NCBI RefSeq assembly: GCF_004310665.1
Contig: NZ_SIXF01000004.1
Coordinates: forward strand, 153,742-177,741
Source: Pedobacter kyonggii
Lineage (GTDB): Bacteria > Bacteroidota > Bacteroidia > Sphingobacteriales > Sphingobacteriaceae
Direction of reading: 5' to 3'
DNA length: 24,000 bases
Below the pieces are notes generated by a model. The model was not told the origin of the DNA, searched no databases, and saw only the letters and a program-made list of their open reading frames with translations. Below, one piece after another: positions 642 to 22,446 of the stretch. Position 1 is the first letter of the stretch. Every line of letters starts with the position of its first letter. Both the position numbers and the translations under genes were made by a program.

Positions 642-658
642 TTAAAACACGATAGCCT

Positions 659-2038: not shown

Positions 2039-2039
2039 T

Positions 2040-3476: not shown

Positions 3477-3477
3477 T

Positions 3478-4839: not shown

Positions 4840-4848
4840 TCAAAAGAT

Positions 4849-6045: not shown

Positions 6046-6074
6046 AAAGTATTTTGCCATATATTATTTGAAAG

Positions 6075-7772
6075 ATGAAAATAAGCGTTAATAAAAATTT
6101 GCTAATTGTTTCTGGGCTTTTGGCTAGCTTTGTGATAGCATCACCAAAAGATGTATCTGCTCAAAAAAAAGCACACAAAAAACCAAACTTTGTACTGGTG
6201 ATGGCTGATGATCTTGGTTACTCTGATTTGGGATGCTATGGTGGAGAAATCAATACCCCAAACTTAGATCGCATTGCTAAACAGGGCATGCAGTTTACCG
6301 AATTTTATAATGTGAGTAGATGTTGCCCTACCAGAGCTTCCTTATTAAGTGGTTTATATAACCATGATGCGGGTATAGGCGATATGACTACACCTCAGAA
6401 TGATACTGGGTATAGAGGATATCTGGGAAAAAACACCGTAACAATAGCCGAAGTACTTAAACAATCTGGTTACCGTACTGCAATGGCTGGCAAGTGGCAT
6501 ATATCTAATACCATAACCCAGCAAAATAAGGACGATCAAATGAAGTGGTTGAACCACCAGGCAGAGCACCCGTTGTTTTCGCCTGCAGATCAATATCCAA
6601 CCAGTCGCGGGTTTGAAAAATTCTATGGAACCATTTGGGGCGTGATAGATTTTTATGACCCTTTTAGCTTGGTAGAAGGCAATAAACCGGTTACAAGTGT
6701 ACCAAAAAATTATTACCACACTGATGCAATCAACGATAAGGCTGCGGGATACATCAGGGAGTTTAGTAAAGGAGATCAGCCTTTTTTCTTATATATCGCC
6801 CATAATGCGCCGCATTGGCCAATACAAGCGCCTGAAGAAGATATTGAAAGATATAAAGATACCTATAAAGTGGGTTGGGAGGTGATCAGGGAAAACAGAT
6901 ACAAAAAAATGGTCAGTTTAGGTTTAATTGATCCCAATAAAGTTAAACTTTCGCCTCGTCATCCCGCTCAGCTAAGTTGGGCAGATAATCCAAATAAAGA
7001 GTGGGATGCAAGAGCAATGGCGGTTCATGCAGCCATGATCGATCGTATGGACAGGGGGTTGGGAAGGGTGATAAAAGCCTTGGAAGAAACTGGGGAAATG
7101 AATAATACCGTATTCGTTTTTTTGAGCGATAATGGTGCCAGTGCAGAACTTTCTGATAAATATGGACCAGGCTTTGATAGGCCAGGCCAAACCCGTGATG
7201 GACGGGAGATTTCTTATGCAACAGATAAAACGGTAATGCCTGGAGCACAAACCACATTTTTTTCTATCGGTCCGGCTTGGGCAAATGTGGCCAATACACC
7301 ATTCAGATTATGGAAATCACAATCCTTGGAGGGCGGTATTCATACACCAATGATCGTATCCTGGCCAGCTGGCATTAAAAACAAAGGTAGTAAAACAGGT
7401 CATGTTGGCCACGTAATGGATTTTATGGCAACATTTATAGATATGGCTGGTGTAAGCTATCCAAAAGAATTTAATGGCAACGCCATAACACCTTTGGAGG
7501 GTGTAAGCCTGGCTGGGGTATTTTCTGGTCAGAAAGCGGCATCACATCAGGCACTGTTTAATGAGCACGAAGGCAGCAAATATGTCCGCTTGGCAGATTG
7601 GAAACTTGTTGTAGCTGGACCTAGCAAAAAATGGCAGCTTTATAACCTGGCTACTGATAAAAGTGAGTTGAATGATCTGGCAGCGCAATATCCTGATAAG
7701 GTGAAAACTTTGAGTGCCATGTGGGACGATTGGGCAAGCAAACACCATGTGCTTCCAAAACCTTCAAAATAA
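6075..7772 (+). CDS. Arylsulfatase-type S1 sulfatase (long form, 565 aa), secreted
   Basis: PNFVLVMADDLGYSDLGCYGG and CCPTRASLLSGLY motifs. Also GKWH, LSDNG, and a C-terminal LYNLATDKSELNDLA segment. Confidence 0.93.
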   Translation: MKISVNKNLLIVSGLLASFVIASPKDVSAQKKAHKKPNFVLVMADDLGYSDLGCYGGEINTPNLDRIAKQGMQFTEFYNVSRCCPTRASLLSGLYNHDAGIGDMTTPQNDTGYRGYLGKNTVTIAEVLKQSGYRTAMAGKWHISNTITQQNKDDQMKWLNHQAEHPLFSPADQYPTSRGFEKFYGTIWGVIDFYDPFSLVEGNKPVTSVPKNYYHTDAINDKAAGYIREFSKGDQPFFLYIAHNAPHWPIQAPEEDIERYKDTYKVGWEVIRENRYKKMVSLGLIDPNKVKLSPRHPAQLSWADNPNKEWDARAMAVHAAMIDRMDRGLGRVIKALEETGEMNNTVFVFLSDNGASAELSDKYGPGFDRPGQTRDGREISYATDKTVMPGAQTTFFSIGPAWANVANTPFRLWKSQSLEGGIHTPMIVSWPAGIKNKGSKTGHVGHVMDFMATFIDMAGVSYPKEFNGNAITPLEGVSLAGVFSGQKAASHQALFNEHEGSKYVRLADWKLVVAGPSKKWQLYNLATDKSELNDLAAQYPDKVKTLSAMWDDWASKHHVLPKPSK

Positions 7773-7894
7773 TAAATAGGATTTAGCGATCTAAAACCCC
7801 ACCTGTTTGTATCTAAACTAAAAAATGCAAGCAGATGACTTTATTTGATGGTTTCCTACTGCAGTAACCCATTTAATTCTATAACAGCTTTAAA

Positions 7895-9316
7895 ATGAAA
7901 AAGTATTTAGCAGGTACACTTATTATTTTGTCAGTACTGGGCTTTTCCTTGAGAGAGTCTACGGCACAATCAAATAAAAAGCCAAATATCATCATTATTC
8001 TCGTTGATGATTTGGGTTGGGGAGATGTAGGCTATCATGGTGGAAACATCCCTACGCCAAATATTGATCGACTGGCAAAACAAGGGGTAGAACTAAATAG
8101 ATTTTATACAGCAGCTGTTTGTTCGCCAACAAGGGCTGGCTTGCTTACTGGCAGATATCCGGATCGTTTCGGATTAAGGAAAACGGTTATTCCTCCCTGG
8201 TCTGATTTTGGGGTGAGCACCGATGAGGTTTTTCTGCCAGAAATGCTTAAAGCAGCAGGTTATAAAAACAGGGCCATACTCGGAAAATGGCATCTTGGTC
8301 ATGTTTCCTTAAAATATCATCCACTAAACAGGGGCTTTACCCATTTTTATGGCCATTTAAATGGTGCTATTGATTATTTTACGCATAAGCGGGAGGGCGA
8401 ACTGGATTGGCACAATGATTTTAATTCCAGTTATGATGTCGGATATTCTACTGATCTCATTGCTGATGAGGCTATTAAAAACATCAGATCATATCACAAA
8501 GAATCTCCTTTCTTCCTTTATATTGCTTTTAATGCACCCCACGGTCCACTGCAGGCCAAAGAGGATGATTTAAAGCGTTTCGGTTACGATGCTACCAAAC
8601 CAAGTTTCCCGAATGGCGGTAAAGAAGGCGATGAGGGAAGGGGTAATACCAAGCAACAAACCTATGCGGCTATGGTCAGTAATTTAGATGCTAATATTGG
8701 GAGAATATTAAAAACCTTGAACGACCTCAAAATTGATCAGAATACCATCGTACTATTCCAAAGTGATAACGGTTATGCACCAAATGAGGCTGGTTCAAGC
8801 GGTATTTTACGCGGATCTAAGTTTACCCAATGGGAAGGTGGTGTTAGAGCTCCAGCGATTATAAGATGGCCACAAGTTTTTAAGGGTGGCTGGAAAAGCG
8901 AGCAAGTTACAGGTTTTGTCGATGTTTTTCCTACGATTTTGGCTGCTGCCGATGTTATGGAAAAACCCAAAAATCCGCTCGACGGGATCAATGTTCTTCC
9001 AGTGTTAAAACAAAAGCAATCTTTTATCAATCGTAATCTCTTTTTGGGAGATGGCGTTTTGGTAAATAGGAATTGGAAAATATTGGAAAAACTGGATCAA
9101 AATTCTGGCATGAAACTAAAATCTGATGTACTTTTTCAAATCGACAGGGATGTTAGTGAAAAGAACGATGTAAAAGACCAATACACCAGTACTTACCAAT
9201 TATTAAAAAAAGATTTAGCACCATTTAATGCGATTAAGGCCACAGCAGAAGTTGCTAACTTCGATGTGGGTAAAAAAGGATTTGTCGCCCCTAAAGAATG
9301 GAAAGTTGAAAAATGA
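7895..9316 (+). CDS. S1-family sulfatase (arylsulfatase B / GalNAc-4-sulfatase-like), secreted
   Basis: PNIIIILVDDLGWGDVGYHGG, CSPTRAGLLTGRYPDRFG, GKWHLG and QSDNG motifs. It is set apart from the preceding genes by a 122-nt gap. Confidence 0.9.
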   Translation: MKKYLAGTLIILSVLGFSLRESTAQSNKKPNIIIILVDDLGWGDVGYHGGNIPTPNIDRLAKQGVELNRFYTAAVCSPTRAGLLTGRYPDRFGLRKTVIPPWSDFGVSTDEVFLPEMLKAAGYKNRAILGKWHLGHVSLKYHPLNRGFTHFYGHLNGAIDYFTHKREGELDWHNDFNSSYDVGYSTDLIADEAIKNIRSYHKESPFFLYIAFNAPHGPLQAKEDDLKRFGYDATKPSFPNGGKEGDEGRGNTKQQTYAAMVSNLDANIGRILKTLNDLKIDQNTIVLFQSDNGYAPNEAGSSGILRGSKFTQWEGGVRAPAIIRWPQVFKGGWKSEQVTGFVDVFPTILAAADVMEKPKNPLDGINVLPVLKQKQSFINRNLFLGDGVLVNRNWKILEKLDQNSGMKLKSDVLFQIDRDVSEKNDVKDQYTSTYQLLKKDLAPFNAIKATAEVANFDVGKKGFVAPKEWKVEK

Positions 9317-9490: not shown

Positions 9491-9790
9491 ATGAATGTAA
9501 GTGATTTTATACTACAGCGCCTGGGCAATTGAGAAAATATTCAGCTATACTGGGGATGGTATCAATGGACTGCTGGGTACGATGAACAGAAACCAGTCCA
9601 TTCGTTTTATACAGCCCCGTCATGAGGAGATGGCCGCTTTTATGGCCTGCGGACATGCCAGGTTCACTGGTGAAGTGGGCGTATACATGGCAACCTCGGG
9701 GGCTGGGGCCATACATCCGCACAACGGCTGTATGATGCGAGGCTAGACCATCAGCCTGTTATGGAGATCATCGGATAGCAAAAAGGCACT
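9491..9790 (+). pseudogene. Relic of a thiamine-diphosphate enzyme (pyruvate oxidase/PoxB-like N-terminal pyrimidine-binding domain), with frameshifts and in-frame stops
   Basis: The ATG at 9491 gives MNVSDFILQRLGN then a stop. The next frame continues IEKIFSYTGDGINGLLGTMNR..IRFIQPRHEEMAAFMACGHARFTGEVGVYMATSGAGAIH then a stop. A third frame gives YDARLDHQPVMEIIG then a stop. Together these match the conserved POX/ALS N-terminal block (..HEE.A...A.G.A..TG....C..TSGPG..H..NGL.DA..D..PVL.I.GQ). Confidence 0.7.
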
Positions 9791-10145
9791 TCTTTTGAAA
9801 GAACTGATTACGATCTTCAAATACTGGAAACAGTGGTCGACACCAGGTTTGCTGATTATCGTACTATCACGGCACATTTGCAGCATAGGCAAAATGTTAT
9901 TTTACCGGCAGCGATCGAAGCATTAACCTGGATCGCTGCAACTTTAAGGTTCCCCGAAATCTTACAGCGGGTTTATAGCGATTGTAAGCTGACCGGTTAA
10001 CAAAATCTAACCAGGATACGTCGAATGTCAGGAAGCCTCCTGTTAGTAGATTAAAAATCGTTCCCAAAGGGCTGATCAGTATTGATTTGACGGCCCGGGC
10101 ATATCATATCTGAGACACAAGGTTTACAGGCTTTTTGCTTTTTTT

Positions 10146-10174
10146 TGTAAGGATTCCATTAAGCGCCCGACTAA
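10146..10174 (+). promoter_or_regulatory. Candidate ECF-type promoter, copy 1 (upstream of the alpha/beta hydrolase)
   Basis: TGTAAGGATTCCATTAAGCGCCCGACTAA. It fits TGTAAGG-N15-CGAC(T/A)AA with the same spacing as the four other copies and is preceded by a T-run. It ends 77 nt before the ATG at 10251. Confidence 0.65.
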
Positions 10175-10250
10175 GCAATGTAATATTTGGCTGGCCCTAA
10201 ATATTGGCTGCAAGTGTAGCATCCAAGCCTCCCATTTTAAACTAAATTTA

Positions 10251-11216
10251 ATGATTATGAGAACACCTTTGATGATAATATTCTTCTTGATCATCGGTTT
10301 TTGCAATATTAAAACTGTTAAAGCACAATCTACCAAATATGATTTCCCACCTCAAACAAATTATCGCTACCAGTATGTGAAAGGTTTACGCATGTTTTAT
10401 AGAGAAGCGGGAGACAAAAACAGACCGACGATTGTTCTGCTACATGGATTTCCATCATCTTCTCATACCTATAGAAATCTTATTCCAATGTTGGCAACTC
10501 AGTACCACGTTATAGCGCCCGACAACATAGGGTCAGGATTTAGTGACAGGCTTAATCCCAATAATGTGAAGTATACATTTGATACATTGGCCAACTTTAC
10601 GAACACACTACTTGACAGCATTGGAGTTAAAGACTATGTAATGTATATGCAAGATTTTGGTGCTCCTGTAGGATACAGAATGTATGCTATGAAGCCTAAG
10701 CGTATTACTCATCTTATCGTTCAAAATGCAAATGCTTATTTAGAGGGACTCACGGCTGATAGACAATTGTTCTTCAAATCCGCACATGATGATTCTTCGA
10801 AATCTAAAATTGATTTTTTGTTTGGTTTGATGTCAAAAGAAGCCATTATCAACAAGCAATATTTATTTGATATTGACTCCTCAAGGTATGATATACAATC
10901 ACCCGATGCATGGGTTCATGATTTATACTTTTTGCAGTCGGATGCTGATAAAAAAATTCAAGTGCAATTATTTCAGGACTATTACAATAATTTGCTGAGT
11001 TATCCCTATTGGCAAGAGCTGCTAAGAAATAATCAACCAAAAACTTTAATTGCATGGGGTGAAAAGGATATGAAATTTATTTCAGAAGGGGCCAAAGCAT
11101 ATTTAAGAGATCTTCCAAATGCCGAATTACACTTACTGGATGCAGGACATTTTGCTGTTGAAGAAAAAGGAAGAGAGGTTGCCATACTTATCCTGAACTT
11201 CTTGAAGAACAACTAA
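10251..11216 (+). CDS. Secreted alpha/beta-fold hydrolase of the epoxide-hydrolase/haloalkane-dehalogenase type (Asp nucleophile)
   Basis: Signal peptide ..IIGFCNIKTVKAQS. HGFP oxyanion motif (LLHGFPSSSHTYRNL). Nucleophile-elbow-like MQDFGAPVG, with Asp where Ser would sit. C-terminal catalytic His context LLDAGHFAVEE. The start could instead be the ATG at 10257. Confidence 0.85.
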   Translation: MIMRTPLMIIFFLIIGFCNIKTVKAQSTKYDFPPQTNYRYQYVKGLRMFYREAGDKNRPTIVLLHGFPSSSHTYRNLIPMLATQYHVIAPDNIGSGFSDRLNPNNVKYTFDTLANFTNTLLDSIGVKDYVMYMQDFGAPVGYRMYAMKPKRITHLIVQNANAYLEGLTADRQLFFKSAHDDSSKSKIDFLFGLMSKEAIINKQYLFDIDSSRYDIQSPDAWVHDLYFLQSDADKKIQVQLFQDYYNNLLSYPYWQELLRNNQPKTLIAWGEKDMKFISEGAKAYLRDLPNAELHLLDAGHFAVEEKGREVAILILNFLKNN

Positions 11217-11349
11217 GTAGAGACCAGCATCAATCGGGTAAACGGCTCGGTGAAAAACCTCACAGAGCGCCACTCGAGAGTTTAGCACCCACTAAAATTT
11301 TCCGATTGCAAAGCGGCGTCAATTCCTTACAAAAAAATACAAAATACTT

Positions 11350-11378
11350 TGTAAGGATTGACGGGCTGTTACGACTAA
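11350..11378 (+). promoter_or_regulatory. Candidate autoregulatory ECF-type promoter, copy 2 (upstream of the sigma/anti-sigma pair)
   Basis: TGTAAGGATTGACGGGCTGTTACGACTAA. Same motif and spacing as the other copies. It ends 65 nt before the sigma-factor ATG at 11443. Confidence 0.7.
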
Positions 11379-11442
11379 GGGGTCAAAAAGAATGCGACAG
11401 AAATGTGGGATGAGATGACCAAACAGAACCTTATATTTAGAT

Positions 11443-12042
11443 ATGTTACAAAAAGATCCTGAGTTTGATACTATTGACAAAAATGCCATCGACCCGCACA
11501 GTTGGGTAAACAAGTATGCCGACTATCTTTTCTCTTATGCGGTCTTCCGCATCAATGATCAGGAGCAGGCGCAGGACCTGGTGCAGGAAACTTTCCTTGC
11601 AGCACTGGAACGCCAGGAAAAGTTTGAAGGCAGGAGTTCTGAGAAAACCTGGCTAACGGCTATCTTAAAAAATAAAATCGTTGACGTTTACCGCTCCAGG
11701 TCGTCGGGACTCAGTAAAGAGATCATTCAAGCGGATATAGAAAGATCGGACGAGGATTTTTTTGACCAGAACGATGGCCATTGGAATGATCAGCACAGAC
11801 CGGCTAAGCTCGGCATAGAAACCTCCGATGCGCTGGAAAATAAAGAGTTTGAAAGAATATTGAAGGCTTGCATGGATAAGCTGCCTGCGCTCTGGCTATC
11901 AGTTTTCTCTATGAAGCATATAGATGAAGAGACCACCGAGCTGATCTGCAGTGAACTCAAGATCAGCTCATCAAATTTTTGGGTCATTATTCACAGGGCT
12001 AAAGTAAACCTAAGGTCATGCCTCCAAAAAAACTGGATTTAA
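11443..12042 (+). CDS. ECF-type RNA polymerase sigma-70 family factor
   Basis: Region 2 block DLVQETFLAALERQEKFEGRSSEKTWLTAILKNKIVDVYR. Region 4 block LPALWLSVFSMKHIDEETTELICSELKISSSNFWVIIHRAKVNLRSCL. It is 199 aa and followed 10 nt later by an anti-sigma-like ORF. Confidence 0.9.
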   Translation: MLQKDPEFDTIDKNAIDPHSWVNKYADYLFSYAVFRINDQEQAQDLVQETFLAALERQEKFEGRSSEKTWLTAILKNKIVDVYRSRSSGLSKEIIQADIERSDEDFFDQNDGHWNDQHRPAKLGIETSDALENKEFERILKACMDKLPALWLSVFSMKHIDEETTELICSELKISSSNFWVIIHRAKVNLRSCLQKNWI

Positions 12043-12052
12043 GCACGAACAG

Positions 12053-12340
12053 ATGAAAGAACTAACAGAAACAGAAATAAAAAAGATTGCATACAACTGC
12101 CGTAAGGCGACCTATTTGATAGAGAAGCAGCAAATAGGCAAAATTACGTTAAGGGAGAAACTGGAACTAAAAATCCACCTGACCGGATGTGCAATTTGTG
12201 TCACTTTCATGCGGCAGAGCGCGGTGATCAATCAAATGGCCAGGAAGCTGGTGAATGCGGATTCCAATACGCTGAAGCTGGACGAAAAATTTAAAGAGCG
12301 GATGCAAAAACGCATCAATAGCCGCCTGAACAAAAATTGA
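12053..12340 (+). CDS. Small soluble zinc-binding anti-sigma factor (ZAS, RsrA-like), no transmembrane segment
   Basis: It carries H42-x3-C46-x2-C49 (IHLTGCAIC) plus C16 exactly 25 residues upstream of the His. It is 95 aa, has no hydrophobic helix, and sits immediately downstream of the ECF sigma gene. Confidence 0.7.
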   Translation: MKELTETEIKKIAYNCRKATYLIEKQQIGKITLREKLELKIHLTGCAICVTFMRQSAVINQMARKLVNADSNTLKLDEKFKERMQKRINSRLNKN

Positions 12341-12598
12341 TCAGCAAAATAAAGATTGGCTATGGAATTTTCCCTGCGCAATAGAATACATCCATTATTT
12401 GTATTCCTGTTGATAACCATCTTGTCGTTAGTCATTTTACTGTGCTTGGCCGAATCCATTTTCATTTTTTTCATTTTGTCTTTTTCCATCTTGCCCTTTT
12501 CCTGGAACGGAGATGCCAGAACGCTAAGGGAAAGGCAGGAAACGATTAAGGCTGAAAACGGTGTTTTAAACAGAAATATATGGGACTTGAAACGCCCA

Positions 12599-12784
12599 AT
12601 GGCCAATACTATGTGGGGCTGGAAATGGGGAGCGCCATTCACCCTCAGCCAATACTGGCTTATGAAAAACGGAAAGCCTTTATTAGTCGAGCACGGCGCC
12701 CCTTTAAGGCTAATCATACCAGTAAAATATGGAATTAAGAATTTAAAAAGGATTGGAAATAGCCTGTTTAGCAATAAATTTTAA
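12599..12784 (+). pseudogene. Possible C-terminal relic of a molybdopterin-binding oxidoreductase (sulfite-oxidase/MsrP-YedY fold)
   Basis: ..LMKNGKPLLVEHGAPLRLIIPVKYGIKNLKRIG.. resembles the conserved ..NG.PL....G.P.RLVVP..YG.K..K.I block at the C-terminal end of the Mo domain. The upstream part of the 142-aa ORF shows no Mo-domain features (no Cys ligand region). The last 42 nt overlap the convergent gene on the - strand. Confidence 0.4.
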
Positions 12785-13408
12785 ATCTTTTATTTCTAAA
12801 ACATTTTTGTGATATCCAAGTGTCAGCGTTCGAATTAAAGCACTTACAATTTTATCATATGTTAAGGTTTGATTAGGAAAAACAAAAGGATAAATAAGCT
12901 TAAGTCCTTTATAAATCCACCTTACATTTTTTTGTGTTTTCAAAGGAGTAATAAACCCTGGACGAAAGCTGTAAGCCACTTTAAAATGTAGCTTATTTAA
13001 TGCGTTCTCTGTTTTGCCTTTAATCCTTGCCCACATTATTTTTCCATTTTCCGAACTATCTGCATATACTCCAGATAAGTAAAAGAAAACCATATCTGGA
13101 TTGAAACCAGCAAGTTGCTTTGCAAACATTATAGTAGTATAAAAAGTGATTTGGTTGTATTTATCCTCGTTCATACCAAAGGAACTAGTGCCCGCGCAAA
13201 AGAAACAGCCATCATAGCCAGTTAGTTGGTTTTTCTGGGCGGCCATATCTGTAAAATCTTTTACGATCAGTTCAGAGAGTTTGGGATGTTTTAATGAAGA
13301 AGCTCTTCTATTTACCATCAATACTACGGTAATATCGGGATGATCAAGAGAGGCCAGCAAAATTCCTTCCCCGATCATCCCTGTAGCTCCTGTAATTATT
13401 ATTTTCAT
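12743..13408 (-). CDS. NAD(P)H-binding Rossmann protein (atypical SDR/epimerase-like)
   Basis: N-terminal MKIIITGATGMIGEGIL (GxxGxxG). It is 221 aa and the last gene of the TetR operon. Confidence 0.8.
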   Translation of the reverse strand: MKIIITGATGMIGEGILLASLDHPDITVVLMVNRRASSLKHPKLSELIVKDFTDMAAQKNQLTGYDGCFFCAGTSSFGMNEDKYNQITFYTTIMFAKQLAGFNPDMVFFYLSGVYADSSENGKIMWARIKGKTENALNKLHFKVAYSFRPGFITPLKTQKNVRWIYKGLKLIYPFVFPNQTLTYDKIVSALIRTLTLGYHKNVLEIKDLKFIAKQAISNPF

Positions 13409-13422
13409 TATTTCATTACATA

Positions 13423-13986
13423 TCAGCGTTCAATCATTTTCCAAAACATAGCGAATGTATCTAGAATGATGCTGTGCTGTTCTTTTTTAGTGAATTTGTT
13501 TGATGAAAGGTATTGATTTACACCAAACACCTGATTACTGATCAAGGCATACAATAAGTTTACATCAATATCGGCGATCTTTTGCTCCTCTACAGCCGAA
13601 CTGAAAAGCTGTAATACGGGGGTTATCTGCGCTGAAATTTTATCAGCTCCGACTTTTTTCAGATAGGGGGAATTGGAGAACTGCGCCAGAAACAAAAACT
13701 CACTGGGATTACGGAGCGACCATTTAAGCGACTCTTCATAATAGCTCTGGATAATCGCTTTTGTTGATTTAACTTCCGCCAATGCAGCATTTATGCTTTC
13801 TGCCGCATGCCCCTTCAATTTTAAGTAAAGTGAAACGATCAAGTCATCTTTAGTCGGGAAAAAATAGAACAAAGTCCCTGTTGCTATCCCTGCCTCTTTT
13901 GCAATTTTACTTGTCGGTGTATCATTAAATCCTTGTGAAACAAACAATTCTAATGCTGTTTCAAGTAACTTTTCCCTTTTATCCAT
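13423..13986 (-). CDS. TetR/AcrR-family transcriptional regulator
   Basis: N-terminal HTH LETALELFVSQGFNDTPTSKIAKEAGIATGTLFYFFPTKDDL. It is 187 aa. Confidence 0.92.
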   Translation of the reverse strand: MDKREKLLETALELFVSQGFNDTPTSKIAKEAGIATGTLFYFFPTKDDLIVSLYLKLKGHAAESINAALAEVKSTKAIIQSYYEESLKWSLRNPSEFLFLAQFSNSPYLKKVGADKISAQITPVLQLFSSAVEEQKIADIDVNLLYALISNQVFGVNQYLSSNKFTKKEQHSIILDTFAMFWKMIER

Positions 13987-13999
13987 AGGTTCCTGGCGA

Positions 14000-14407
14000 T
14001 TACTTTATATCATCCATCCGGCCACAGAACAATTCATTAACCATAATGGTATCCAAATATTCATAAAGCCCGCTAATTAAGCCGTCTTTAAAGGTAAGAA
14101 GCAACATCACATTGTTTACGTAAATACGGCCATCCTTTCGCGTTCCCCGAATATGAACATAAAGCGCTGCACGCTCTTCGTCTGCTGTAACAGACCGAAG
14201 CGTCATTTTCATTCCCGCCGGGAATCGTTCTGCTACGATGCCCCATAATTTTGTCTGGTTTTCTAGTGATTGATAACCTCCATACGGCCAGGATCCCTCG
14301 CCGCTCCACCAATAAACATAATCAGGCGTTTTTAATTCGGACATTTCATCGAAGTTACCAGCAACCATTGCATTGAAATACTTTTCTGCGATTTCTTTTG
14401 TTTTCAT
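14000..14407 (-). CDS. NTF2-fold / SnoaL-like protein
   Basis: 135 aa. The N-terminal KEIAEKYFNAMVAGNFDEM is typical of SnoaL-like/NTF2 family proteins. It is the first gene of the TetR operon. Confidence 0.7.
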   Translation of the reverse strand: MKTKEIAEKYFNAMVAGNFDEMSELKTPDYVYWWSGEGSWPYGGYQSLENQTKLWGIVAERFPAGMKMTLRSVTADEERAALYVHIRGTRKDGRIYVNNVMLLLTFKDGLISGLYEYLDTIMVNELFCGRMDDIK

Positions 14408-14414
14408 ATTTTAT

Positions 14415-14442
14415 CATTGACTGACTGTTTAGTCAGTCAATG
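14415..14442. promoter_or_regulatory. Perfect palindrome, candidate TetR operator
   Basis: CATTGACTGACT-gttt-AGTCAGTCAATG, with 12-bp perfect arms and a 4-bp spacer. It starts 8 nt upstream of the first ATG (14407, - strand) of the SnoaL-TetR-NAD(P)-binding operon. Confidence 0.65.
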
Positions 14443-14588
14443 TAAATGTACAATAATTTATTTATCTACAAAATCTGTAAAAGACAATAATTAATTAGTC
14501 TTCTGACAACCCAGTTAAAGGTCTGGAGTTGCTGCTCTTGCGGAACCGCTTGGTCAAGACCTTTAAAACTTCCCATTATAACTTCGCG

Positions 14589-16271
14589 TTAAGAATTGGC
14601 CGACTTTACGTATCGCGTGTTCCGTCTGATCATATCTATGCCTTCTCGGTAGGGCATATAACTCAGCCCGCGCTCCCTGCGGTTTTGTTTACTTACCTGG
14701 TATAAGATACTCCAATGACGGATGATCTCTTTCCAGGCAAAAAATATCAAATGTTTAGGATCGTAAATATGAGCCGGCTCGCTGGCAGCACCATTTACCT
14801 CCATGATCTTGAATTGACCGGCACAGAGTTCCGGCCAGGTATGGTACTTCACATCTAAGCGACCGTAATAAAAGCCTGGGATCTGTGTGCAAACCGCGTG
14901 GACACTTTGTACCAGCTCGTCGGTCAGATGATCGCTAAGGTCAATAAATTTTGCGCCGCGGCTATGATTGCCATAAGGTGCCGGCAGGGCAATTTCGCCT
15001 GCGGGAATGATACGTTGCAGTGCCTGGTAATCGTATTTGGCTAATGCTGGCAGTTGCAGCAGATATCTCGGCTCTTTGGCCAACAGCTCCTGTAAAGTGG
15101 AGCATCCGTCGCCGGTTACACTCATTAGTTCCTTTCCAACGATACCAGTGATGCTTACAATATCACTGCCCGGCATTCTGTAATAAAATATCCCGGCTTC
15201 TTTAGGATAATCAATATATTCCTGCAGTAAAAAATCTACCTTACTGTTAGCTGCATAAGTCTGGAGGTCTTCCTGAGATTTTAACAATTTCACCTGCAAA
15301 CCACGTTGGCCGATATCAGGCTTGGCAATCAGTGGCAAAGCAACGTTGATGTTTGCCACCGGTGTACCAGCTTTAATCAGAATCGTCTTTGGACAATATT
15401 GCGGAATATGGGTGTAAATTTGATACTTGCTATCCATGGCGAACCCGCCATTTTTCATGCCAGGGTTAGCCGTATTAAAGAAAAAAATGGCACGTGACTT
15501 AATACTGAGCCAAAACCAATAGAACATTACAGGCGTATAGACAACATAATAAGGCCAATACTCCCAATTAAAAAGCTTTATCAAAAAAATGCGCAGATTC
15601 AACCATGAAATTTCCTTCCTAACTATATCCAACTGCTTTGCCTGTGTTGTGTTGGTTTTAAGATCCTCATATGTCATATCCACTTGGGTATAACTTACCT
15701 GGATATGTGTGATGCTTACGGTGCTAACAGGGCCCGTTAAGCATTCCGACCGATGAAAATCAATTACAGCTGCACGGTCCTTTTTATTCGCCGATTTAAA
15801 ACGGCTGAATTTTTCCCTTTGGTTTATTTCATCGTAAAGCGTTGCAGAGCTCCATATTTGCGGCTGTTGCGGATCAAGCTGAACCGAGTATTTATATGCT
15901 CCATCCCAGCGGCATTCACAAACCATCCCTTTTGTGCAAAGCACCAGGGTAAAAGGCTCAATATCGTGCAGATCAACGCTTTCAAAATACCGTTCCGGGT
16001 GAGTGTTTGCAATGACTTCCAGCAGTAGTAAGCCGCGGCTTTTCTTATAAAACGGCTTTTGGATGTGTTTGGCAAAAGCGCCGTTCAATAGTACCGCCAC
16101 GTCGCCATTTGTCTTAGCAGCGATCCAGCTACCGCTTTTATCGGGGTCTTTGGGATAAAGCAGGTTGCCATAAGTAGCCGGGGAAATCGCCGTACCGCGA
16201 TTTTGATGCTCATCCCGGTTTGAAGTCAGATAAAAGCCTTCCTTGGCCGGTATATAAGTTACGGTGCACAT
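14589..16271 (-). CDS. Fusion protein: N-terminal NRDE/TANGO2-like domain (Cys2), two predicted TM helices, C-terminal ATP-grasp ligase domain
   Basis: It starts MCTVTYIPAKEGFYLTSNRDEHQNRG, giving the Met-Cys start plus literal NRDE motif of the NRDE/TANGO2 family, with SRG and LLNG blocks further on. The hydrophobic stretch is FNWEYWPYYVVYTPVMFYWFWLSIKSRAIFFF. The ATP-grasp signatures are PLIAKPDIGQRGLQVKLL, LLQEYIDYPKEAGIFYY, and the E-x-N Mg site in FKIMEVNGAASEPAHIYDP. Confidence 0.75.
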   Translation of the reverse strand: MCTVTYIPAKEGFYLTSNRDEHQNRGTAISPATYGNLLYPKDPDKSGSWIAAKTNGDVAVLLNGAFAKHIQKPFYKKSRGLLLLEVIANTHPERYFESVDLHDIEPFTLVLCTKGMVCECRWDGAYKYSVQLDPQQPQIWSSATLYDEINQREKFSRFKSANKKDRAAVIDFHRSECLTGPVSTVSITHIQVSYTQVDMTYEDLKTNTTQAKQLDIVRKEISWLNLRIFLIKLFNWEYWPYYVVYTPVMFYWFWLSIKSRAIFFFNTANPGMKNGGFAMDSKYQIYTHIPQYCPKTILIKAGTPVANINVALPLIAKPDIGQRGLQVKLLKSQEDLQTYAANSKVDFLLQEYIDYPKEAGIFYYRMPGSDIVSITGIVGKELMSVTGDGCSTLQELLAKEPRYLLQLPALAKYDYQALQRIIPAGEIALPAPYGNHSRGAKFIDLSDHLTDELVQSVHAVCTQIPGFYYGRLDVKYHTWPELCAGQFKIMEVNGAASEPAHIYDPKHLIFFAWKEIIRHWSILYQVSKQNRRERGLSYMPYREGIDMIRRNTRYVKSANS

Positions 16272-16759
16272 CCCTGCCTGTATTTGAGCGTGGATGCCGC
16301 GATGCCAAATCCGGCCGGTATCTCTATTGCTGAGATGGCACCAATGCCTATTCTGATCAGTGCCATATGATGTACGGTATGCTCCAGGTTGTAGATAAGT
16401 TCCCGGTAGTAATTGGTTTGTATTCGGATTGATTGAGATTCCTCAGCATCATAGTTTACCACCAGCACGAGTTTCCGGTCGGGTTTCCCTAAACTACAGA
16501 TAATTTCCCGTAGACATTGCTGCGCTACCTCTTTATCGTTTTCTACGGCGTGGTTTCTTTCGCGGCGGTCATAATCAACCTCCCCGATCGCATAACCCTT
16601 ATTGAGTTCCAAATAAAACTCCAGTATATGACGGCCATGCTGACCTATGGTTGACCCGGATAAGATGGTCAGCGGATGTGTAAATTCGGTATTGGTCAGC
16701 CCGCCGATAATACCGTGTAGCTGTTCTAGCAAATTGGTTATAGGTTCTTTAAGCGGCAT
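16259..16759 (-). CDS. DinB/DinB_2-superfamily-like four-helix-bundle protein (putative metal-dependent, possibly thiol-dependent, enzyme)
   Basis: His-rich motifs sit at DinB-like positions: GQHGRHILEFY in the N-terminal third and LEHTVHHMALI (H-x3-H) near the C-terminus. It is 166 aa. Its stop overlaps the downstream ATG by 13 nt. Confidence 0.5.
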   Translation of the reverse strand: MPLKEPITNLLEQLHGIIGGLTNTEFTHPLTILSGSTIGQHGRHILEFYLELNKGYAIGEVDYDRRERNHAVENDKEVAQQCLREIICSLGKPDRKLVLVVNYDAEESQSIRIQTNYYRELIYNLEHTVHHMALIRIGIGAISAIEIPAGFGIAASTLKYRQGCAP

Positions 16760-16763
16760 AGGA

Positions 16764-17165
16764 TCAGCGATTGGTAAATGGTAGATAGTTGAACAATTGT
16801 TTTTTTAAGAGCGGCACTAATGCCATGCAGCTGATTAACGTCACTAAAGCCAAAATGAAAAGTTTACCACCATCGTTCTGTACATTGATGCCTAATTGTG
16901 TCAGGTGAAAAAAGATAGCCCCCACAATAATGCCTATGCCTAGCAGCGCGCCTAAAATAGTGGTACGGGGAAACAGGATCAATAGGGAGGCGATCAGTTC
17001 TAGGCAGCCGATGCCGATGCGTCCATATGGCTCCATCCCTAATTTGGTAAAGATATACACAGATTCCGGCGCGGCTGTAAACTTGAAGAAAAGGGTTTGC
17101 AGCATAATGCCGGCTGCTATCAGGCGGAGGCCCCAGGTTAGCATATCAAGGTTTTTTGTCGTCAC
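16764..17165 (-). CDS. DoxX-family integral membrane protein
   Basis: About 130 aa with four hydrophobic helices. WGLRLIAAGIML..FFKF.. and GCLELIASLLILFPRT are typical DoxX blocks. The start is either the GTG at 17165 or the ATG at 17144. Confidence 0.8.
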   Translation of the reverse strand: MTTKNLDMLTWGLRLIAAGIMLQTLFFKFTAAPESVYIFTKLGMEPYGRIGIGCLELIASLLILFPRTTILGALLGIGIIVGAIFFHLTQLGINVQNDGGKLFILALVTLISCMALVPLLKKQLFNYLPFTNR

Positions 17166-17211
17166 GATATTGAGATTTTAGTGTAAAAAGATATGTTTTT
17201 ATGTTTATTCT

Positions 17212-17667
17212 CTAATTTTGAGTGAACCTGGTCCAACTTATATCAGCTTTGGTTTTCAGCCTGCTCTCGTCTTTATCCCAGGATTTTTTGGTATTGTTAA
17301 GGAATTTGTTGTAAAAGAGGTAAAGCTTGCCACTTACGAGCTTAAAAGTCTCCGGGTCAACAGCTACTTTGGTGCCGCTGGCTCCCATGGCATAGGCACA
17401 CCAACCACCATATTGCGGTAAATATTTAGCGGTGTTGGCCTTAAACAGACTGCGGTGCTGGTTGCTGACAAAACGATAAGTCACGCCATCATGCACCAAC
17501 GTAATTTCTTTTTTCCCTTCGACCGCTTTTTGCATCGTAAAATACGCTACCGGGTCGTAACCTGCCAACGCAAGGCCCGTATCATCCAGGTTAAGTTGTT
17601 TTTTTTGAGCCCGTGCTGAGTTCAGGATCAAGGCTGTAAATACGATAAGCAATAGGTATTTATACAT
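17212..17667 (-). CDS. Secreted YHS-domain protein (TRASH/YHS metal-binding-type fold; Cys form)
   Basis: Signal peptide MYKYLLLIVFTALILNSARAQ. LAGYDPVAYF...GVTYRFVS..HRSLF..N..KYLPQYGGWCAYAM...GKLYLFYN matches the YHS-domain family layout. The ATG at 17667 is preferred over the TTG at 17709 in the ORF track. Confidence 0.8.
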   Translation of the reverse strand: MYKYLLLIVFTALILNSARAQKKQLNLDDTGLALAGYDPVAYFTMQKAVEGKKEITLVHDGVTYRFVSNQHRSLFKANTAKYLPQYGGWCAYAMGASGTKVAVDPETFKLVSGKLYLFYNKFLNNTKKSWDKDESRLKTKADISWTRFTQN

Positions 17668-17689
17668 AGTCTTCCGAGTGTTTACCAGC

Positions 17690-17718
17690 TTTGTCGCAGC
17701 CGGGGGCAAAACCTTACA
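17690..17718 (-). promoter_or_regulatory. Candidate ECF-type promoter, copy 3 (drives the YHS-DoxX-DinB-NRDE/ATP-grasp operon)
   Basis: The - strand reads TGTAAGGTTTTGCCCCCGGCTGCGACAAA, with the same motif and spacing. It ends 22 nt before the ATG at 17667. Confidence 0.65.
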
Positions 17719-17729
17719 ATATTTTTTTT

Positions 17730-17758
17730 TGTAAGGAAATCAGCAGGTTGCCGACAAA
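17730..17758 (+). promoter_or_regulatory. Candidate ECF-type promoter, copy 4 (drives the DM13/beta-barrel operon), back-to-back with copy 3
   Basis: TGTAAGGAAATCAGCAGGTTGCCGACAAA. It ends 25 nt before the ATG at 17784. The two -35 boxes form the inverted repeat CCTTACAAtattttttTTGTAAGG. Confidence 0.65.
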
Positions 17759-17783
17759 CCAGCAAACCACAATCAATTAGCTC

Positions 17784-18209
17784 ATGAAAAAAATCATTTA
17801 TTTCAGCACCATCATCGCACTTATGGCCAGCTGCAAAAAAGAAAGCACTCCGACCGCAGTGCTCAATGAAAAGGTGGACATGATGATGTCCAAGCCTGAA
17901 ACCGACAGTAGCGGATTTATTAACGGCCCATATGGTTCAGTAAGGGGCACAGCCCGTATATATATAACCAACGGCAAATATCAACTGGCACTGGAAAATT
18001 TTAGCAGCAGCAATGGACCCGACCTTAAAGTGTATATCAGTAAGGAGCAGCGGCCGGTCAATTTTGTGAATTTGGGTTCGCTAAAATCTACAAAAGGGAA
18101 TCAACTATATGATATCCCGGGTAATGTCAAAGTTCAGGATTATGCTTATGCACTGATCTATTGCCAGCAATACAGTCACTTATTCGGTTACACTCAATTT
18201 ACCTATTAA
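17784..18209 (+). CDS. DM13-domain lipoprotein
   Basis: Lipobox ..IIALMASC. GTARIYITNGKYQLALENFSSSNGPDLKVYIS....LGSLKSTKGNQLYDIP...DYAYALIYCQQYSHLFG matches the DM13 pattern (fixed GPDL..Y, Lk...G.q.Y.iP, and late Cys). Confidence 0.72.
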   Translation: MKKIIYFSTIIALMASCKKESTPTAVLNEKVDMMMSKPETDSSGFINGPYGSVRGTARIYITNGKYQLALENFSSSNGPDLKVYISKEQRPVNFVNLGSLKSTKGNQLYDIPGNVKVQDYAYALIYCQQYSHLFGYTQFTY

Positions 18210-18210
18210 T

Positions 18211-19125
18211 ATGAAAAATATATATTTCTCTTGTATAGCCCTGCTTTGCACAACTTATACTTTTGGTCAGGGCTGCAGCGACGCAGGTTTCTGTAGCCTT
18301 GGCGTGCTCAAAAACAATGTGGCTGATTCAGCCAGGCACACCTTAAGTTTCGGCCTGAATTACGGCGTCGGCTACGAGCAGACCAACATTACTAATGCTT
18401 ATATAGAGTATGGAAGTAAACTGAGTGAACGTTTGTCCTTCCGAACTAAACTGACTGCCAATTATGCGACGGGGTTTTTAGGCAGCGCCTTTGACATAGG
18501 CGATATTTATGGTACGCTTAATTACGCCCTGAGAACTAAATCAGCCAGTACGATTAATATAATTGGCGGCGTAAAGGTGCCACTTACTGCCGGCAACCAT
18601 AAAAACAAAGATGGCAAGCCCTTACCGCTGGATTACCAAGCCAGTATCGGTACCTATGATGCCATAGGTGGTATTAATTACATCGTCAACCAAAGCTGGG
18701 AGTTTGATGCCGGAATACAGGTACCGGTTATACAGGTGAATAAAAACACCTTCTTTCCCGACGAACACAACGATTTCCGCGCAAACGAATTCGCACCTAC
18801 AAATAACTTTAAACGAAAAAGTGATGTCCTGGGCCGCATTGGTTACTATATTCAACTGCCGGCATCAGCTATTGTCTTAAAGCCAAGCTTGCTAGGTATT
18901 TATCACTTAGGCAGAGATACCTACGAAGACCGTTTTGGACAGCGCAACATCATCGAAGGCTCAGACGGTTTTACGCTGAACGGCAGCATCGTGGGCACTA
19001 AAAGATTTAAAAACGGCAATAGCCTGGAACTGCTTTTTGCAACTCCTTTCATCGTGCGTAAAGTGAGACCTGACGGACTTACCCGCAAAGGTGTCATAAA
19101 CGTCCAGTACACGATCTCGCTGTAG
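18211..19125 (+). CDS. Putative outer-membrane beta-barrel protein (MetA/phenol-degradation-type transporter-like), unknown function
   Basis: It has a signal peptide followed by the GCSDAGFCS motif. Alternating hydrophobic strands run throughout, and PLPLDYQASIGTYD is similar to the conserved loop of that barrel family. It starts 1 nt after the DM13 stop. Family call is from memory only. Confidence 0.45.
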   Translation: MKNIYFSCIALLCTTYTFGQGCSDAGFCSLGVLKNNVADSARHTLSFGLNYGVGYEQTNITNAYIEYGSKLSERLSFRTKLTANYATGFLGSAFDIGDIYGTLNYALRTKSASTINIIGGVKVPLTAGNHKNKDGKPLPLDYQASIGTYDAIGGINYIVNQSWEFDAGIQVPVIQVNKNTFFPDEHNDFRANEFAPTNNFKRKSDVLGRIGYYIQLPASAIVLKPSLLGIYHLGRDTYEDRFGQRNIIEGSDGFTLNGSIVGTKRFKNGNSLELLFATPFIVRKVRPDGLTRKGVINVQYTISL

Positions 19126-19269
19126 AAACCTATCATTGATAATGACTGACCGGGATCCGGAGCGCGGCAGAGGGGATTTTTTAATGCAACCCGGACATCA
19201 AGGCCGCAGGACAATAGGTATTGCTGCAGTTTTTTTACGTTGGAAATGACCATCAAATGCACCAGCAGC

Positions 19270-19298
19270 TGTAAGGATATGGCGGCCGTTACGACTAA
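19270..19298 (+). promoter_or_regulatory. Candidate ECF-type promoter, copy 5 (drives msrB and the DUF417 gene)
   Basis: TGTAAGGATATGGCGGCCGTTACGACTAA. It shares GTTACGACTAA with the sigma-gene copy and ends only 6 nt before the msrB ATG at 19305. Confidence 0.7.
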
Positions 19299-19304
19299 CT
19301 AAAT

Positions 19305-19811
19305 ATGAGAAGGATAAATATATTCGTATTTCCGCTTTTATTCGCAACACTGACCGCTTGTAGTCAGGGCGACGTTAAAAGCACAAAAGTGCCACATGCG
19401 CCAACTGTCGGATCCTTTCCAGCTGCTAAGCCTGACTGTTACTGGAAGAAAATATTATCGCCTGAAGCTTATGATATCATGGTCGGGAAGGGAACCGAAA
19501 GGCCTTTTAAGAACCCTTATCACGATAACCATAGGAAAGGGATCTATGTTAGTGCTGCAACTGGAAAGCCTTTGTTCGCATCTTCGGCGAAGTTCGATTC
19601 GGGTACAGGTTGGCCCAGCTTTTTTGAACCGATCGATGAAAAAGCGATCATGATCGTTAAAGATACTTCATTTGGAACGGTGCGTGACGAGGTGATCGAG
19701 CGTAGCACCGGTTTGCATTTGGGACACGTTTTTGACGATGGTCCGGCGCCGACCGGAAAACGCTATTGTATGAATTTCTACGCTTTGAAATTCATTCCAT
19801 CCAGACAATAA
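19305..19811 (+). CDS. msrB: Peptide-methionine (R)-S-oxide reductase MsrB, lipoprotein/exported form
   Basis: Lipobox LLFATLTACSQG. SelR-domain motifs KFDSGTGWPSFFEP, GLHLGHVFDDGP.PTGKRYCMN (catalytic Cys). Both structural-zinc CxxC pairs are absent (YVSAATGKPLF in place of the first). Confidence 0.92.
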   Translation: MRRINIFVFPLLFATLTACSQGDVKSTKVPHAPTVGSFPAAKPDCYWKKILSPEAYDIMVGKGTERPFKNPYHDNHRKGIYVSAATGKPLFASSAKFDSGTGWPSFFEPIDEKAIMIVKDTSFGTVRDEVIERSTGLHLGHVFDDGPAPTGKRYCMNFYALKFIPSRQ

Positions 19812-19857: not shown

Positions 19858-20292
19858 ATGAACATCAAAAAAACAGGATACGCCATCGGCGTTATCGGAA
19901 CGATCATCGTTCTATTATGGATAGGCATATTGAAATTTACGCCAACTGAAGCTGCAGCTATCAAACCCTACGTCGAGCATAGCTTTTTAATGGGCTGGAT
20001 GTACCAGATCGGAAGTGTGCAACAGGTTTCCAATTTTGTGGGAATCTTTGAACTTATAACCGCTATACTTCTTATCGCCTCGTTTTTCAACAGGCGGATG
20101 GGATTGATCGGGGGCTACCTGGGGGTGCTTATTTTCCTGACCACGCTTACCTTTATTTTCACGACACCCGGCATCTGGAAAGAGATGGACGGTTTACCCG
20201 TAACTGATTTTTTTGTTGTTAAGGACATTGCGTTCCTGGCTATTGTTCTCCAAGTGATCGGAATGCATCGAAAAGATGCCGATGCTGCATAA
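19858..20292 (+). CDS. DUF417-family (YkgB/RclC-like, DoxX-related) membrane protein
   Basis: 144 aa with four helices. IGILKFTPTEAAAIKPYVEHSFLMGWMY and VGIFELITAILLI resemble the DUF417 signature. It lies 46 nt after msrB with no motif or hairpin in between. Confidence 0.7.
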   Translation: MNIKKTGYAIGVIGTIIVLLWIGILKFTPTEAAAIKPYVEHSFLMGWMYQIGSVQQVSNFVGIFELITAILLIASFFNRRMGLIGGYLGVLIFLTTLTFIFTTPGIWKEMDGLPVTDFFVVKDIAFLAIVLQVIGMHRKDADAA

Positions 20293-20312: not shown

Positions 20313-20348
20313 ATGAGCGCCCCGAATCTCAAAATCCGGGGCGCTCAT
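20313..20348. terminator. Bidirectional hairpin terminator between convergent genes
   Basis: ATGAGCGCCCCG-aatctcaaaatc-CGGGGCGCTCAT, a 12-bp GC-rich perfect stem. It lies 21 nt after the DUF417 stop and 24 nt after the convergent relic ORF's stop. Confidence 0.7.
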
Positions 20349-22427: not shown

Positions 22428-22446
22428 TTGATTGGATTTTTAATTA

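Follow-up and report, generated by a model that had tools for sequence, protein, structure and literature searches.

The closest described relative of the system reported here is the sigma-E (Ecf, NMB2144/NGO1944)/MseR pair of Neisseria. Neisseria sigma-E promoters combine a -35 element GTMAGBWTT, a spacer of 12-13 nucleotides (nt) and a -10 element CGTCTAAH with an upstream A/T-rich UP element, and a conserved A six nt downstream of the -10 element is the mapped start of gonococcal msrAB (PMC2893595, the source of the gonococcal msrAB promoter data used here). Our subject is a 24 000 nt stretch of the Pedobacter kyonggii genome (contig NZ_SIXF01000004.1, positions 153 742 to 177 741; the whole stretch is called the window), in which the motif TGTAAGG-N15-CGAC(T/A)AA occurs five times around the genes for an extracytoplasmic function (ECF) sigma factor and a soluble zinc-binding anti-sigma (ZAS) protein. 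The five sites are very probably promoters for RNA polymerase with the ECF sigma factor whose gene lies at 11443-12042, and the system would be a Bacteroidota member of the ECF13/ECF293 sigma-E/MseR type with a much enlarged regulon. No description of this sigma/promoter system in Bacteroidota was found in the literature.

Several other described systems bear on the interpretation. RpoE2 of Haemophilus influenzae is induced by hypochlorous acid (HOCl), H2O2 and paraquat (PMC7907618). The ZAS residues are C4/H30/C34/C37 in MseR and C11/H37/C41/C44 in RsrA (PMC2893595), the partner of Streptomyces coelicolor SigR, whose regulon includes msr and thiol-redox genes (PMC7907618). In Azospira suillum, the SigF-NrsF system responds to reactive chlorine and drives the secreted methionine-rich peptide MrpX together with YedY, a periplasmic methionine sulfoxide reductase (Msr); MrpX acts as a hypochlorite sink that is recycled by the periplasmic Msr (PMC4436054).

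The initial annotation of the window reported five copies of the motif, and an exact pattern search returned the same five:

10146-10174, plus strand: copy 1, exact motif (predicted -35 box TGTAAGG, predicted -10 box CGACTAA), predicted +1 at about 10181, before an alpha/beta hydrolase gene
11350-11378, plus strand: copy 2, exact motif, predicted +1 an A at 11385, before the sigma/anti-sigma operon and putatively autoregulatory
17690-17718, minus strand: copy 3, exact motif, predicted +1 an A at 17683, before the YHS-DoxX operon
17730-17758, plus strand: copy 4, exact motif, predicted +1 an A at 17765, before the DM13 gene
19270-19298, plus strand: copy 5, exact motif, predicted +1 the A of the msrB ATG at 19305

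None of 100 dinucleotide-preserving shuffles of the window produced a match. Allowing up to three mismatches added merely five window sites, each with exactly three, where chance would supply 3.4; no site in the 24 kb had one or two mismatches. Because the extra sites are all at the chance level, a clean gap separates the true sites from the background. As originally annotated, every copy lies between open reading frames (ORFs), never within a gene of the window, and is oriented toward the next gene, whose ATG follows the end of copies 1 to 5 at 76, 64, 22, 25 and 6 nt, respectively. The spacers and flanks of the five copies show no sequence relationship to one another, and copies 3 and 4 stand back to back with an 11 nt A/T tract between them. 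A/T-rich tracts upstream of the boxes resemble an UP element; the T-run that had been noted as usually preceding the sites is present at four of the five copies and missing from the copy at 19270. Written in the Neisseria manner, the window sites read GTAAGG(W)(T/A)(T/A)-N12-CGAC(T/A)AA. A scan of the window for sigma-70 promoters and terminators gave output at background level, its sole useful product being a hairpin after the DUF417 gene.

Conservation of the motif was assessed in 80 loci that carry sigma orthologues (57-75% identity; 1.45 Mb in total, 1.48 Mb with the window), drawn from Pedobacter, Mucilaginibacter, Arcticibacter, Chitinophaga, Puia, Dyadobacter and related metagenome-assembled genomes. 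In the 80 loci there are 141 exact copies of the motif, and with the window 146, where 0.025 are expected from base composition. The mismatch spectrum of the combined set runs from 146 exact sites through 60 with a single mismatch to 25 with two, opposite to the order that chance predicts. Although ORFs of at least 120 amino acids (aa) make up 79% of the sequence, the sites that lie outside them include 141 of the 146 exact ones, 54 of the 60 with one mismatch and 8 of the 25 with two, so the coding regions of the 80 loci and the window do not carry the motif at a similar density. Each of the other five exact sites is found right where an ORF begins at its 5' end, and their seemingly coding position is an artefact of setting the start at the first in-frame ATG. 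Distances from site to ATG are mostly 15-50 nt.

Enrichment upstream of orthologues in related genomes, which the initial annotation had put forward as a check, is seen at the sigma gene itself. A site with at most two mismatches stands directly upstream of 71 of the 80 sigma orthologues, in loci that span three orders; two further sigma genes have upstream boxes with a 14 or 16 nt spacer, and in the remaining seven the site precedes the gene just upstream, which implies an operon. In a pattern-free k-mer count over the 200 nt upstream of the sigma genes, TGTAAGG was the most shared 7-mer (69 of 80), and its reverse complement CCTTACA and the second box CGACTAA were found in 47 and 36, respectively. 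The sequence logo shows A-tracts upstream of the boxes, a 15 nt spacer without conservation apart from W-T-T next to the -35 box and a weak C next to the -10 box, and an A at position 36, 7 nt past the second box, in 85% of sites. If this conserved A is +1, TGTAAGG would occupy -35 to -29 and CGAC(T/A)AA would occupy -13 to -7. Boxes that are conserved before sigma orthologues and separated by a variable spacer lend in silico support to the proposal that the adjacent ECF sigma factor uses the sites as its promoters and is autoregulatory; copy 2 does precede the sigma/anti-sigma pair, as had been claimed:

11443-12042, plus strand: ECF sigma factor, 199 aa (Pfam Sigma70_r2, 5e-15; Sigma70_r4_2, 1.3e-4)
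12053-12340, plus strand: soluble ZAS anti-sigma of 95 aa with Cys16, His42, Cys46 and Cys49 (H-x3-C-x2-C)

The sigma factor consists of regions 2 and 4 alone, the ECF architecture, and scores 78.8 bits on the TIGR02937 ECF superfamily model (cut-off 42.9). Its sequence is 100% identical to that of a protein on record for P. kyonggii. BLASTP aligned it with gonococcal Ecf at 39% identity over 176 residues (E=1e-33). Gonococcal Ecf scores 284 bits on TIGR02943, the top family for the Pedobacter protein also, and a GHW motif in the linker is common to the two (DGHW in Pedobacter, NGHW in Ecf). The anti-sigma gene follows after a gap of 10 nt, and its product is 34% identical to MseR across the ZAS motif, both proteins matching the antisigmaE model NF052368. 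A ZAS ORF follows the sigma gene in 78 of the 80 related loci and in 77 of these 78 the ORF retains a Cys at a distance of 26 residues from the His that follows it (C-x25-H-x3-C-x2-C); no transmembrane or hydrophobic segment was found in the anti-sigmas of these loci. Since both Pedobacter proteins score under the cut-offs of their models, family membership is a matter of similarity and not of a curated threshold. By that similarity the sigma factor appears to be of the ECF13 (now ECF293)/TIGR02943 type, with Neisseria Ecf as its nearest relative; N. meningitidis RpoE is assigned to ECF293, the group that merges former ECF13.

Two other affiliations were discarded. An equation of TIGR02943 with ECF18 (RpoT) was rejected, as ECF18 anti-sigmas are RskA-like and N. 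meningitidis RpoE is in ECF293. The analogy with Bacillus subtilis SigX drawn in the initial annotation did not survive comparison with the family models either, the SigX models NF007220 and NF007217 giving 55 bits (cut-off 260) and 52 bits (cut-off 239), respectively, and the closest system being Neisseria Ecf (sigma-E)/MseR. The likeness to a SigX promoter, given in that annotation as TGTAAC-N17-CGAC, is superficial; the sigma families differ, and the SigX anti-sigma, RsiX, is a membrane protein. The best families of the sigma factor in the NCBIfam search are not SigR-type, a search of the PDB returned generic ECF structures only, and the ORFs of the window that were scanned include no NrsF-like (DUF1109) gene. 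An exhaustive search of cluster representatives gave 237 that match the sigma factor at E<1e-30; the clusters that were looked up are almost all of metagenome proteins.

The resemblance to Neisseria sigma-E extends from the proteins to the promoters and their targets. In both systems a homologous sigma factor is encoded directly upstream of a soluble ZAS anti-sigma with identical Cys/His spacing, the promoters fit GTMAGBWTT-N12(-13)-CG(T/A)CTAA with an UP-like A/T tract and an A at +1 six nt past the 8 nt -10 box, the motif stands before the sigma operon, and methionine sulfoxide reductase and DoxX belong to the regulon. In gonococcal DNA, the sequence upstream of the doxX-ecf operon reads GTCAGTTTT-N12-CGTCTAA, with an A at position 36. 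The order of this operon (promoter, doxX, a gene for a Cys-rich secreted peptide with EGKCG repeats, DUF692, DUF2063, ecf, mseR) indicates a gene cluster for a bufferin-type peptide, a ribosomally synthesized and post-translationally modified peptide (RiPP), under sigma-E control. The operon was seen at NZ_CP119142.1, 1844005-1854520, among sequences from PLSDB, where 2.17 Mb N. gonorrhoeae chromosomes are filed as plasmids, two being present.

The two systems also differ. Neisseria belongs to the Betaproteobacteria and Pedobacter to the Bacteroidota, the anti-sigma has about 60 aa in the former and 95 aa in the latter, and Neisseria sigma-E controls two transcription units and a small RNA, whereas the Pedobacter window holds five putative promoters in 9 kb. 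Neisseria has a Trx-MsrAB fusion where Pedobacter has a standalone lipoprotein MsrB, and the window is without a DUF692/DUF2063 bufferin-type cluster. Relative to Neisseria, the extra candidate targets are DUF1223, peroxiredoxin, DM13, YHS, TANGO2/ATP-grasp and methionine-rich peptides.

Besides the sigma/anti-sigma operon, the following genes lie behind the putative promoters of the window:

10251-11216, plus strand: secreted alpha/beta-fold hydrolase with a hydrophobic N-terminal leader (Pfam Abhydrolase_1, 1.6e-26)
14589-17667, minus strand: four-gene operon with gaps or overlaps of at most 46 nt, made up of the next four genes
17212-17667, minus strand: YHS-domain protein (family match), first gene of the operon
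16764-17165, minus strand: DoxX (family match)
16259-16759, minus strand: 166-aa protein without a Pfam or NCBIfam match, even in a relaxed search
14589-16271, minus strand: TANGO2/NRDE and ATP-grasp fusion protein, 560 aa (family matches)
17784-18209, plus strand: DM13-domain lipoprotein (Pfam DM13, 2.2e-15)
18211-19125, plus strand: outer-membrane beta-barrel-like protein (OMP_b-brl, weak, 0.0038)
19305-19811, plus strand: lipoprotein MsrB (SelR, 9.7e-43)
19858-20292, plus strand: DUF417/RclC-like membrane protein (DUF417, 3.8e-34; RclC model, 8.9e-19)
20313-20348: hairpin ending the msrB-DUF417 unit

Some of the original gene labels had to be changed. The product called an 'Asp-hydrolase' is the alpha/beta-fold hydrolase of the first line, the label 'DinB' for the 166-aa protein found no backing in Pfam or NCBIfam, relaxed Pfam search included, and the YHS gene starts at 17667 instead of 17709. 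The fusion protein has a TANGO2/NRDE-like N-terminal domain followed by a weakly matching ATP-grasp (RimK-like) domain.

Four of the five units appear clearly conserved behind the motif; for the hydrolase unit the conserved counterpart is a single metagenome contig, L143, in which a 39.5%-identical hydrolase lies 71 nt behind an exact site, much the same distance as in the window. Homologues in related loci have a same-strand upstream site in 15 of 15 cases for the YHS protein, 6 of 7 for DoxX, 5 of 5 each for the 166-aa protein and the TANGO2/ATP-grasp fusion, 3 of 3 for DUF417 and 5 of 8 for MsrB. The gene order of the YHS-DoxX operon, with the fusion last, recurs behind the motif in at least five related loci (L016, L051, L068, L076 and L046). 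The 166-aa protein is kept in the operon in five related loci and occurs behind the motif in metagenome locus L169. DM13 homologues are found behind the motif in two metagenome loci (L154 and L195), and a homologue of the barrel protein lies 1 kb behind a site in L016.

The msrB start is fixed at 19305 by an in-frame TAA two codons upstream, and the product opens with a lipoprotein signal peptide. Because the predicted +1 coincides with this ATG, 6 nt past the -10 box, a leaderless mRNA is implied. The same 6 nt distance between motif and msrB is found in two Mucilaginibacter loci (L068 and L071) and in metagenome contig L172; elsewhere behind the motif, MsrB leaders are mostly 15-130 nt long.

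Clustering of the first ORF behind each exact site gave the following targets across the related loci, counted as loci:

Sigma gene: 48 loci
Small secreted Met/Lys-rich protein: 35 loci, usually right after the anti-sigma gene and with its own promoter copy
DUF1223: 28 loci, usually divergent from sigma
Secreted peroxiredoxin: 10 loci
YHS protein: 6 loci
Spondin-domain protein: 4 loci
Lipoprotein MsrB: 3 loci
Single cases: among others, cytochrome b, DoxX protein, DUF417 protein and a thioredoxin-like (TlpA-like) protein

Genes for molybdopterin oxidoreductase and cytochrome b are sometimes found behind the motif in Bacteroidota relatives; a 170-aa ORF behind the motif in L038 had no Pfam match and hence was not counted as a molybdopterin oxidoreductase. 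Metagenome contigs were also scanned for the exact motif without the sigma gene as an anchor, giving 120 downstream ORFs. Of these, 44 match the regulon reference set, compared with 34 of 648 control ORFs, and the matches include eight MsrB (the most frequent target), seven DUF1223, five sigma, two DM13 and one hydrolase (that of L143). With target orthologues carrying the motif both in other genomes and in the metagenome scan, the original proposal that otherwise unrelated genes are joined in one stress regulon gains support. On seven metagenome contigs (L119, L140, L142, L163, L175, L199 and L200) the first ORF behind the exact motif encodes a small ZAS-type protein and not a sigma factor, and these may represent an anti-sigma-first or orphan arrangement in other lineages.

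We propose the following mechanism. In the unstressed cell, the sigma factor would be held by its co-transcribed soluble zinc-binding anti-sigma, with Cys16, His42, Cys46 and Cys49 as the relevant residues. Oxidation of the anti-sigma thiols, for which reactive chlorine species or other thiol-reactive oxidants would be the likeliest trigger, would release the sigma factor. Free sigma would then amplify its own operon and activate four further units of the window, namely the hydrolase gene, the YHS-DoxX-166-aa-TANGO2/ATP-grasp operon, DM13 with the barrel protein, and MsrB with DUF417. In relatives the same promoter would also drive DUF1223, peroxiredoxins, pairs of an MsrP-like molybdoenzyme and cytochrome b, and methionine-rich secreted peptides. 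The target set, with MsrB, peroxiredoxin and methionine-rich peptides among its members, suggests that the regulon repairs or buffers oxidized methionine and cysteine of the cell envelope. The inducing signal is the weakest step of this mechanism; the composition and context of the MrpX-like peptides favour a theme of reactive chlorine or methionine oxidation. Autoregulation of this kind would not surprise a specialist in ECF sigma factors, and no new regulatory principle emerges from it.

The analysis established directly that the motif exists, how it is conserved, placed and oriented, and to which families the proteins are related; dependence on the sigma factor, the transcription starts, the redox switch and the inducing signal are what we infer from them. 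Several points weigh against this interpretation. The support for the Pedobacter promoters is entirely comparative, and the fixed positions of the logo are circular by construction, which the mismatch spectrum and k-mer counts were used to address. TIGR02943, the top NCBIfam model of the sigma factor, gives 161.2 bits, 1 bit under its cut-off of 162.2, and NF052368 matches the 95-aa protein at 1.4e-11 with a score of 44 against a cut-off of 50. At -10 the sites mostly have CGAC where the Neisseria consensus has CGTC, a difference of one position, and copy 1 has G, T and A at positions 35 to 37 in place of the conserved A, along with a long leader. Some Bacteroidota sigma promoters naturally have CGTCTAA at -10. 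Moreover, meningococcal sigma-E is not activated by H2O2, diamide or singlet oxygen (PMC2893595), and autoregulation of H. influenzae rpoE2 is weak, RpoE2 barely activating its own promoter in reporters (PMC7907618). Given these meningococcal and H. influenzae results, the redox-switch and autoregulation steps are not simply transferable to Pedobacter.

A variant of the proposed mechanism keeps the promoters and the sigma factor but replaces the signal: the stress would be copper or another thiophilic metal, and the regulon would handle metals in the envelope. The suggestion arises from the link between DoxX and bufferins in Neisseria and from the YHS-domain protein of the window, which heads the largest operon, and zinc-thiolate sensors can react with thiophilic metals too. 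DoxX is a target in common with Neisseria and Haemophilus, and in the sigma-E operon it lies within the bufferin-type cluster (EGKCG peptide, DUF692 and DUF2063); bufferins protect against copper (PMC11626156), and those of Caulobacter are controlled by a heavy-metal-responsive ECF sigma factor (PMC11626156; see also PMC3511200). We nevertheless regard a metal signal as unlikely, since the most conserved targets (MsrB, peroxiredoxin, DUF1223, thioredoxin-like and RclC-like proteins, and methionine-rich peptides) point to oxidation of methionine and cysteine, bufferin genes are absent from the window, and the inducers of H. influenzae RpoE2 are HOCl, H2O2 and paraquat (PMC7907618).

Alternatively, the motif could be the site of a different regulator, either another ECF sigma factor or the TetR protein encoded at 13423-13986, the proximity of the sigma gene being coincidental. 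Bacteroidetes average about 22 ECF sigma factors per genome (PMC7826278), the TetR gene sits between two units of the putative regulon, and the comparative nature of the evidence counts here too. A site that is asymmetric and directional, that lies at promoter distance from gene starts and has a fixed 15 nt unconserved spacer, is however not operator-like; it occurs directly upstream of this sigma gene in at least 71 of the 80 genomes, across three orders, and the homologous sigma factor of Neisseria has a matching promoter. The asymmetry, the promoter distance and the place upstream of sigma in nearly every genome make another regulator highly improbable. Identical boxes at five places in 9 kb, two of them back to back, might also bring to mind a dispersed repeat (of repetitive extragenic palindrome or miniature inverted-repeat transposable element type, or a recent duplication) or plain chance, with no regulatory role. 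This can be dismissed with near certainty on the unrelated spacers and flanks and on the statistics, chance expectation being 0-0.03; in addition, orthologous positions keep their sites in distant genera despite divergence of the surrounding DNA, and the orientation to the downstream gene is always the same.

Sigma-dependent promoters thus remain the preferred reading, and comparison with the other described systems helps to place them. Streptomyces coelicolor SigR recognizes promoters of the form GGAAT-N18-GTT. SigR-RsrA (ECF12) belongs to another ECF group with another promoter, and its regulon is mainly cytoplasmic, in contrast to the nearly all exported or membrane products here; as the prototype of the cytoplasmic ZAS thiol switch, it resembles the Pedobacter pair in the corresponding positions of its residues (PMC2893595). 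H. influenzae RpoE2/HrsE is alike by published description in its small ZAS anti-sigma, its regulon of genes for the repair of periplasmic damage (msrAB) together with a DoxX operon, and its induction by HOCl, and differs in being hardly self-activating; a promoter consensus is not defined in that report (PMC7907618). With Azospira SigF-NrsF (ECF16 type) the likeness lies in output logic only, that is a methionine-rich peptide together with Msr, such a peptide being present in 35 of the 80 Bacteroidota loci. The sigma group and promoter of the Azospira system are unrelated, and NrsF is a membrane protein where the anti-sigma here is a soluble ZAS protein; the Bacteroidota peptides share composition and context with MrpX, but homology is not demonstrable.

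A sigma homologue is also present on the alphaproteobacterial Sphingopyxis plasmid pSFD01, flanked by motifs at 4791-4819 and 8509-8537. The two sites read GTAAGCATT-N12-CGACCAA, which follows the sigma homologue, and GTAAGGAAT-N12-CGACCAA; they lie before a TVP38/flavin adenine dinucleotide-oxidoreductase gene, with a thioredoxin gene nearby. Boxes of the CGAC type at -10 are consequently not confined to Bacteroidota.

On a wider scale, the sigma/ZAS pair could be the master switch, in Sphingobacteriia and Chitinophagia, of a large and almost wholly exported defence against reactive chlorine and methionine oxidation, in which a cytoplasmic thiol sensor is coupled to periplasmic sacrificial methionine-rich peptides, an MrpX-like device that would have evolved, or been recruited, independently of SigF-NrsF of Proteobacteria. 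We advance this tentatively, at slightly less than even chances. If true, it would assign a function to DUF1223, YHS-selenoprotein-like proteins, the TANGO2/NRDE-ATP-grasp fusion, DM13 and its barrel partner, the 166-aa orphan and the spondin-domain protein. With promoter specificity nearly identical in Neisseria and Pedobacter, the pair would then rank among the more deeply conserved combinations of ECF sigma factor and promoter. Already on the main reading, the virulence-associated sigma-E/MseR system of Neisseria and Haemophilus has a far larger counterpart in environmental bacteria, and methionine-rich peptides of the putatively sacrificial kind are found outside Proteobacteria under another sigma family. 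The analysis also offers a high-confidence promoter model, in which 14 positions are nearly invariant, the spacer is fixed and +1 is predicted, for an ECF sigma factor widespread in soil Bacteroidota. By tying at least 12 poorly characterized exported proteins to one putative stress regulon, it offers an inexpensive way toward the functions of DUF1223, DoxX partners, DM13 and YHS proteins and the TANGO2/ATP-grasp fusion.

The surroundings of the sigma operon contain several remnants. A lone inverted -35 box, CCTTACA, lies at 11325-11331 on the minus strand, 18 nt upstream of the sigma promoter, with its -10 partner gone. Among the relatives, CCTTACA is found upstream of sigma in 47 of 80, and a full divergent promoter there serves DUF1223 or peroxiredoxin genes. 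The box is probably a vestige of such a divergent promoter, which suggests that in P. kyonggii the divergent partner of sigma gave way to the alpha/beta hydrolase gene and the promoter copy belonging to it. The region after the anti-sigma gene is decayed; at 12400-12540 on the minus strand a secreted peptide rich in Met and Lys survives as a remnant that lacks a start (..ALIVSCLSLSVLASPFQEKGKMEKDKMKKMKMDSAKHSKMTNDKM..), and at 12600-12780 on the plus strand there is a molybdopterin oxidoreductase fragment. In 35 of the 80 relatives that position is taken by an MrpX-like gene that is intact and has a motif promoter to itself.

Just upstream of copy 1, and outside the feature, an 81-aa TPP_enzyme_N fragment of a thiamine-pyrophosphate enzyme at 9501-9746 on the plus strand (E=3e-17) appears to be a pseudogene remnant and is followed by non-coding-looking sequence at 9750-10100. 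Positions 1-9316 hold five sulfatase genes, a GH5/GH2-like hydrolase and a DUF3823 protein, a cluster of the polysaccharide-utilization type that contains no copy of the motif and is unrelated to the regulon. At the other end of the window, a thioredoxin and DsbD-like operon (21975-23892, minus strand) has no site with up to three mismatches in the 108 nt between it and the window end (23893-24000). The operon fits the theme of the regulon, and thioredoxin homologues stand behind the motif in three loci (L004, L017 and L075).

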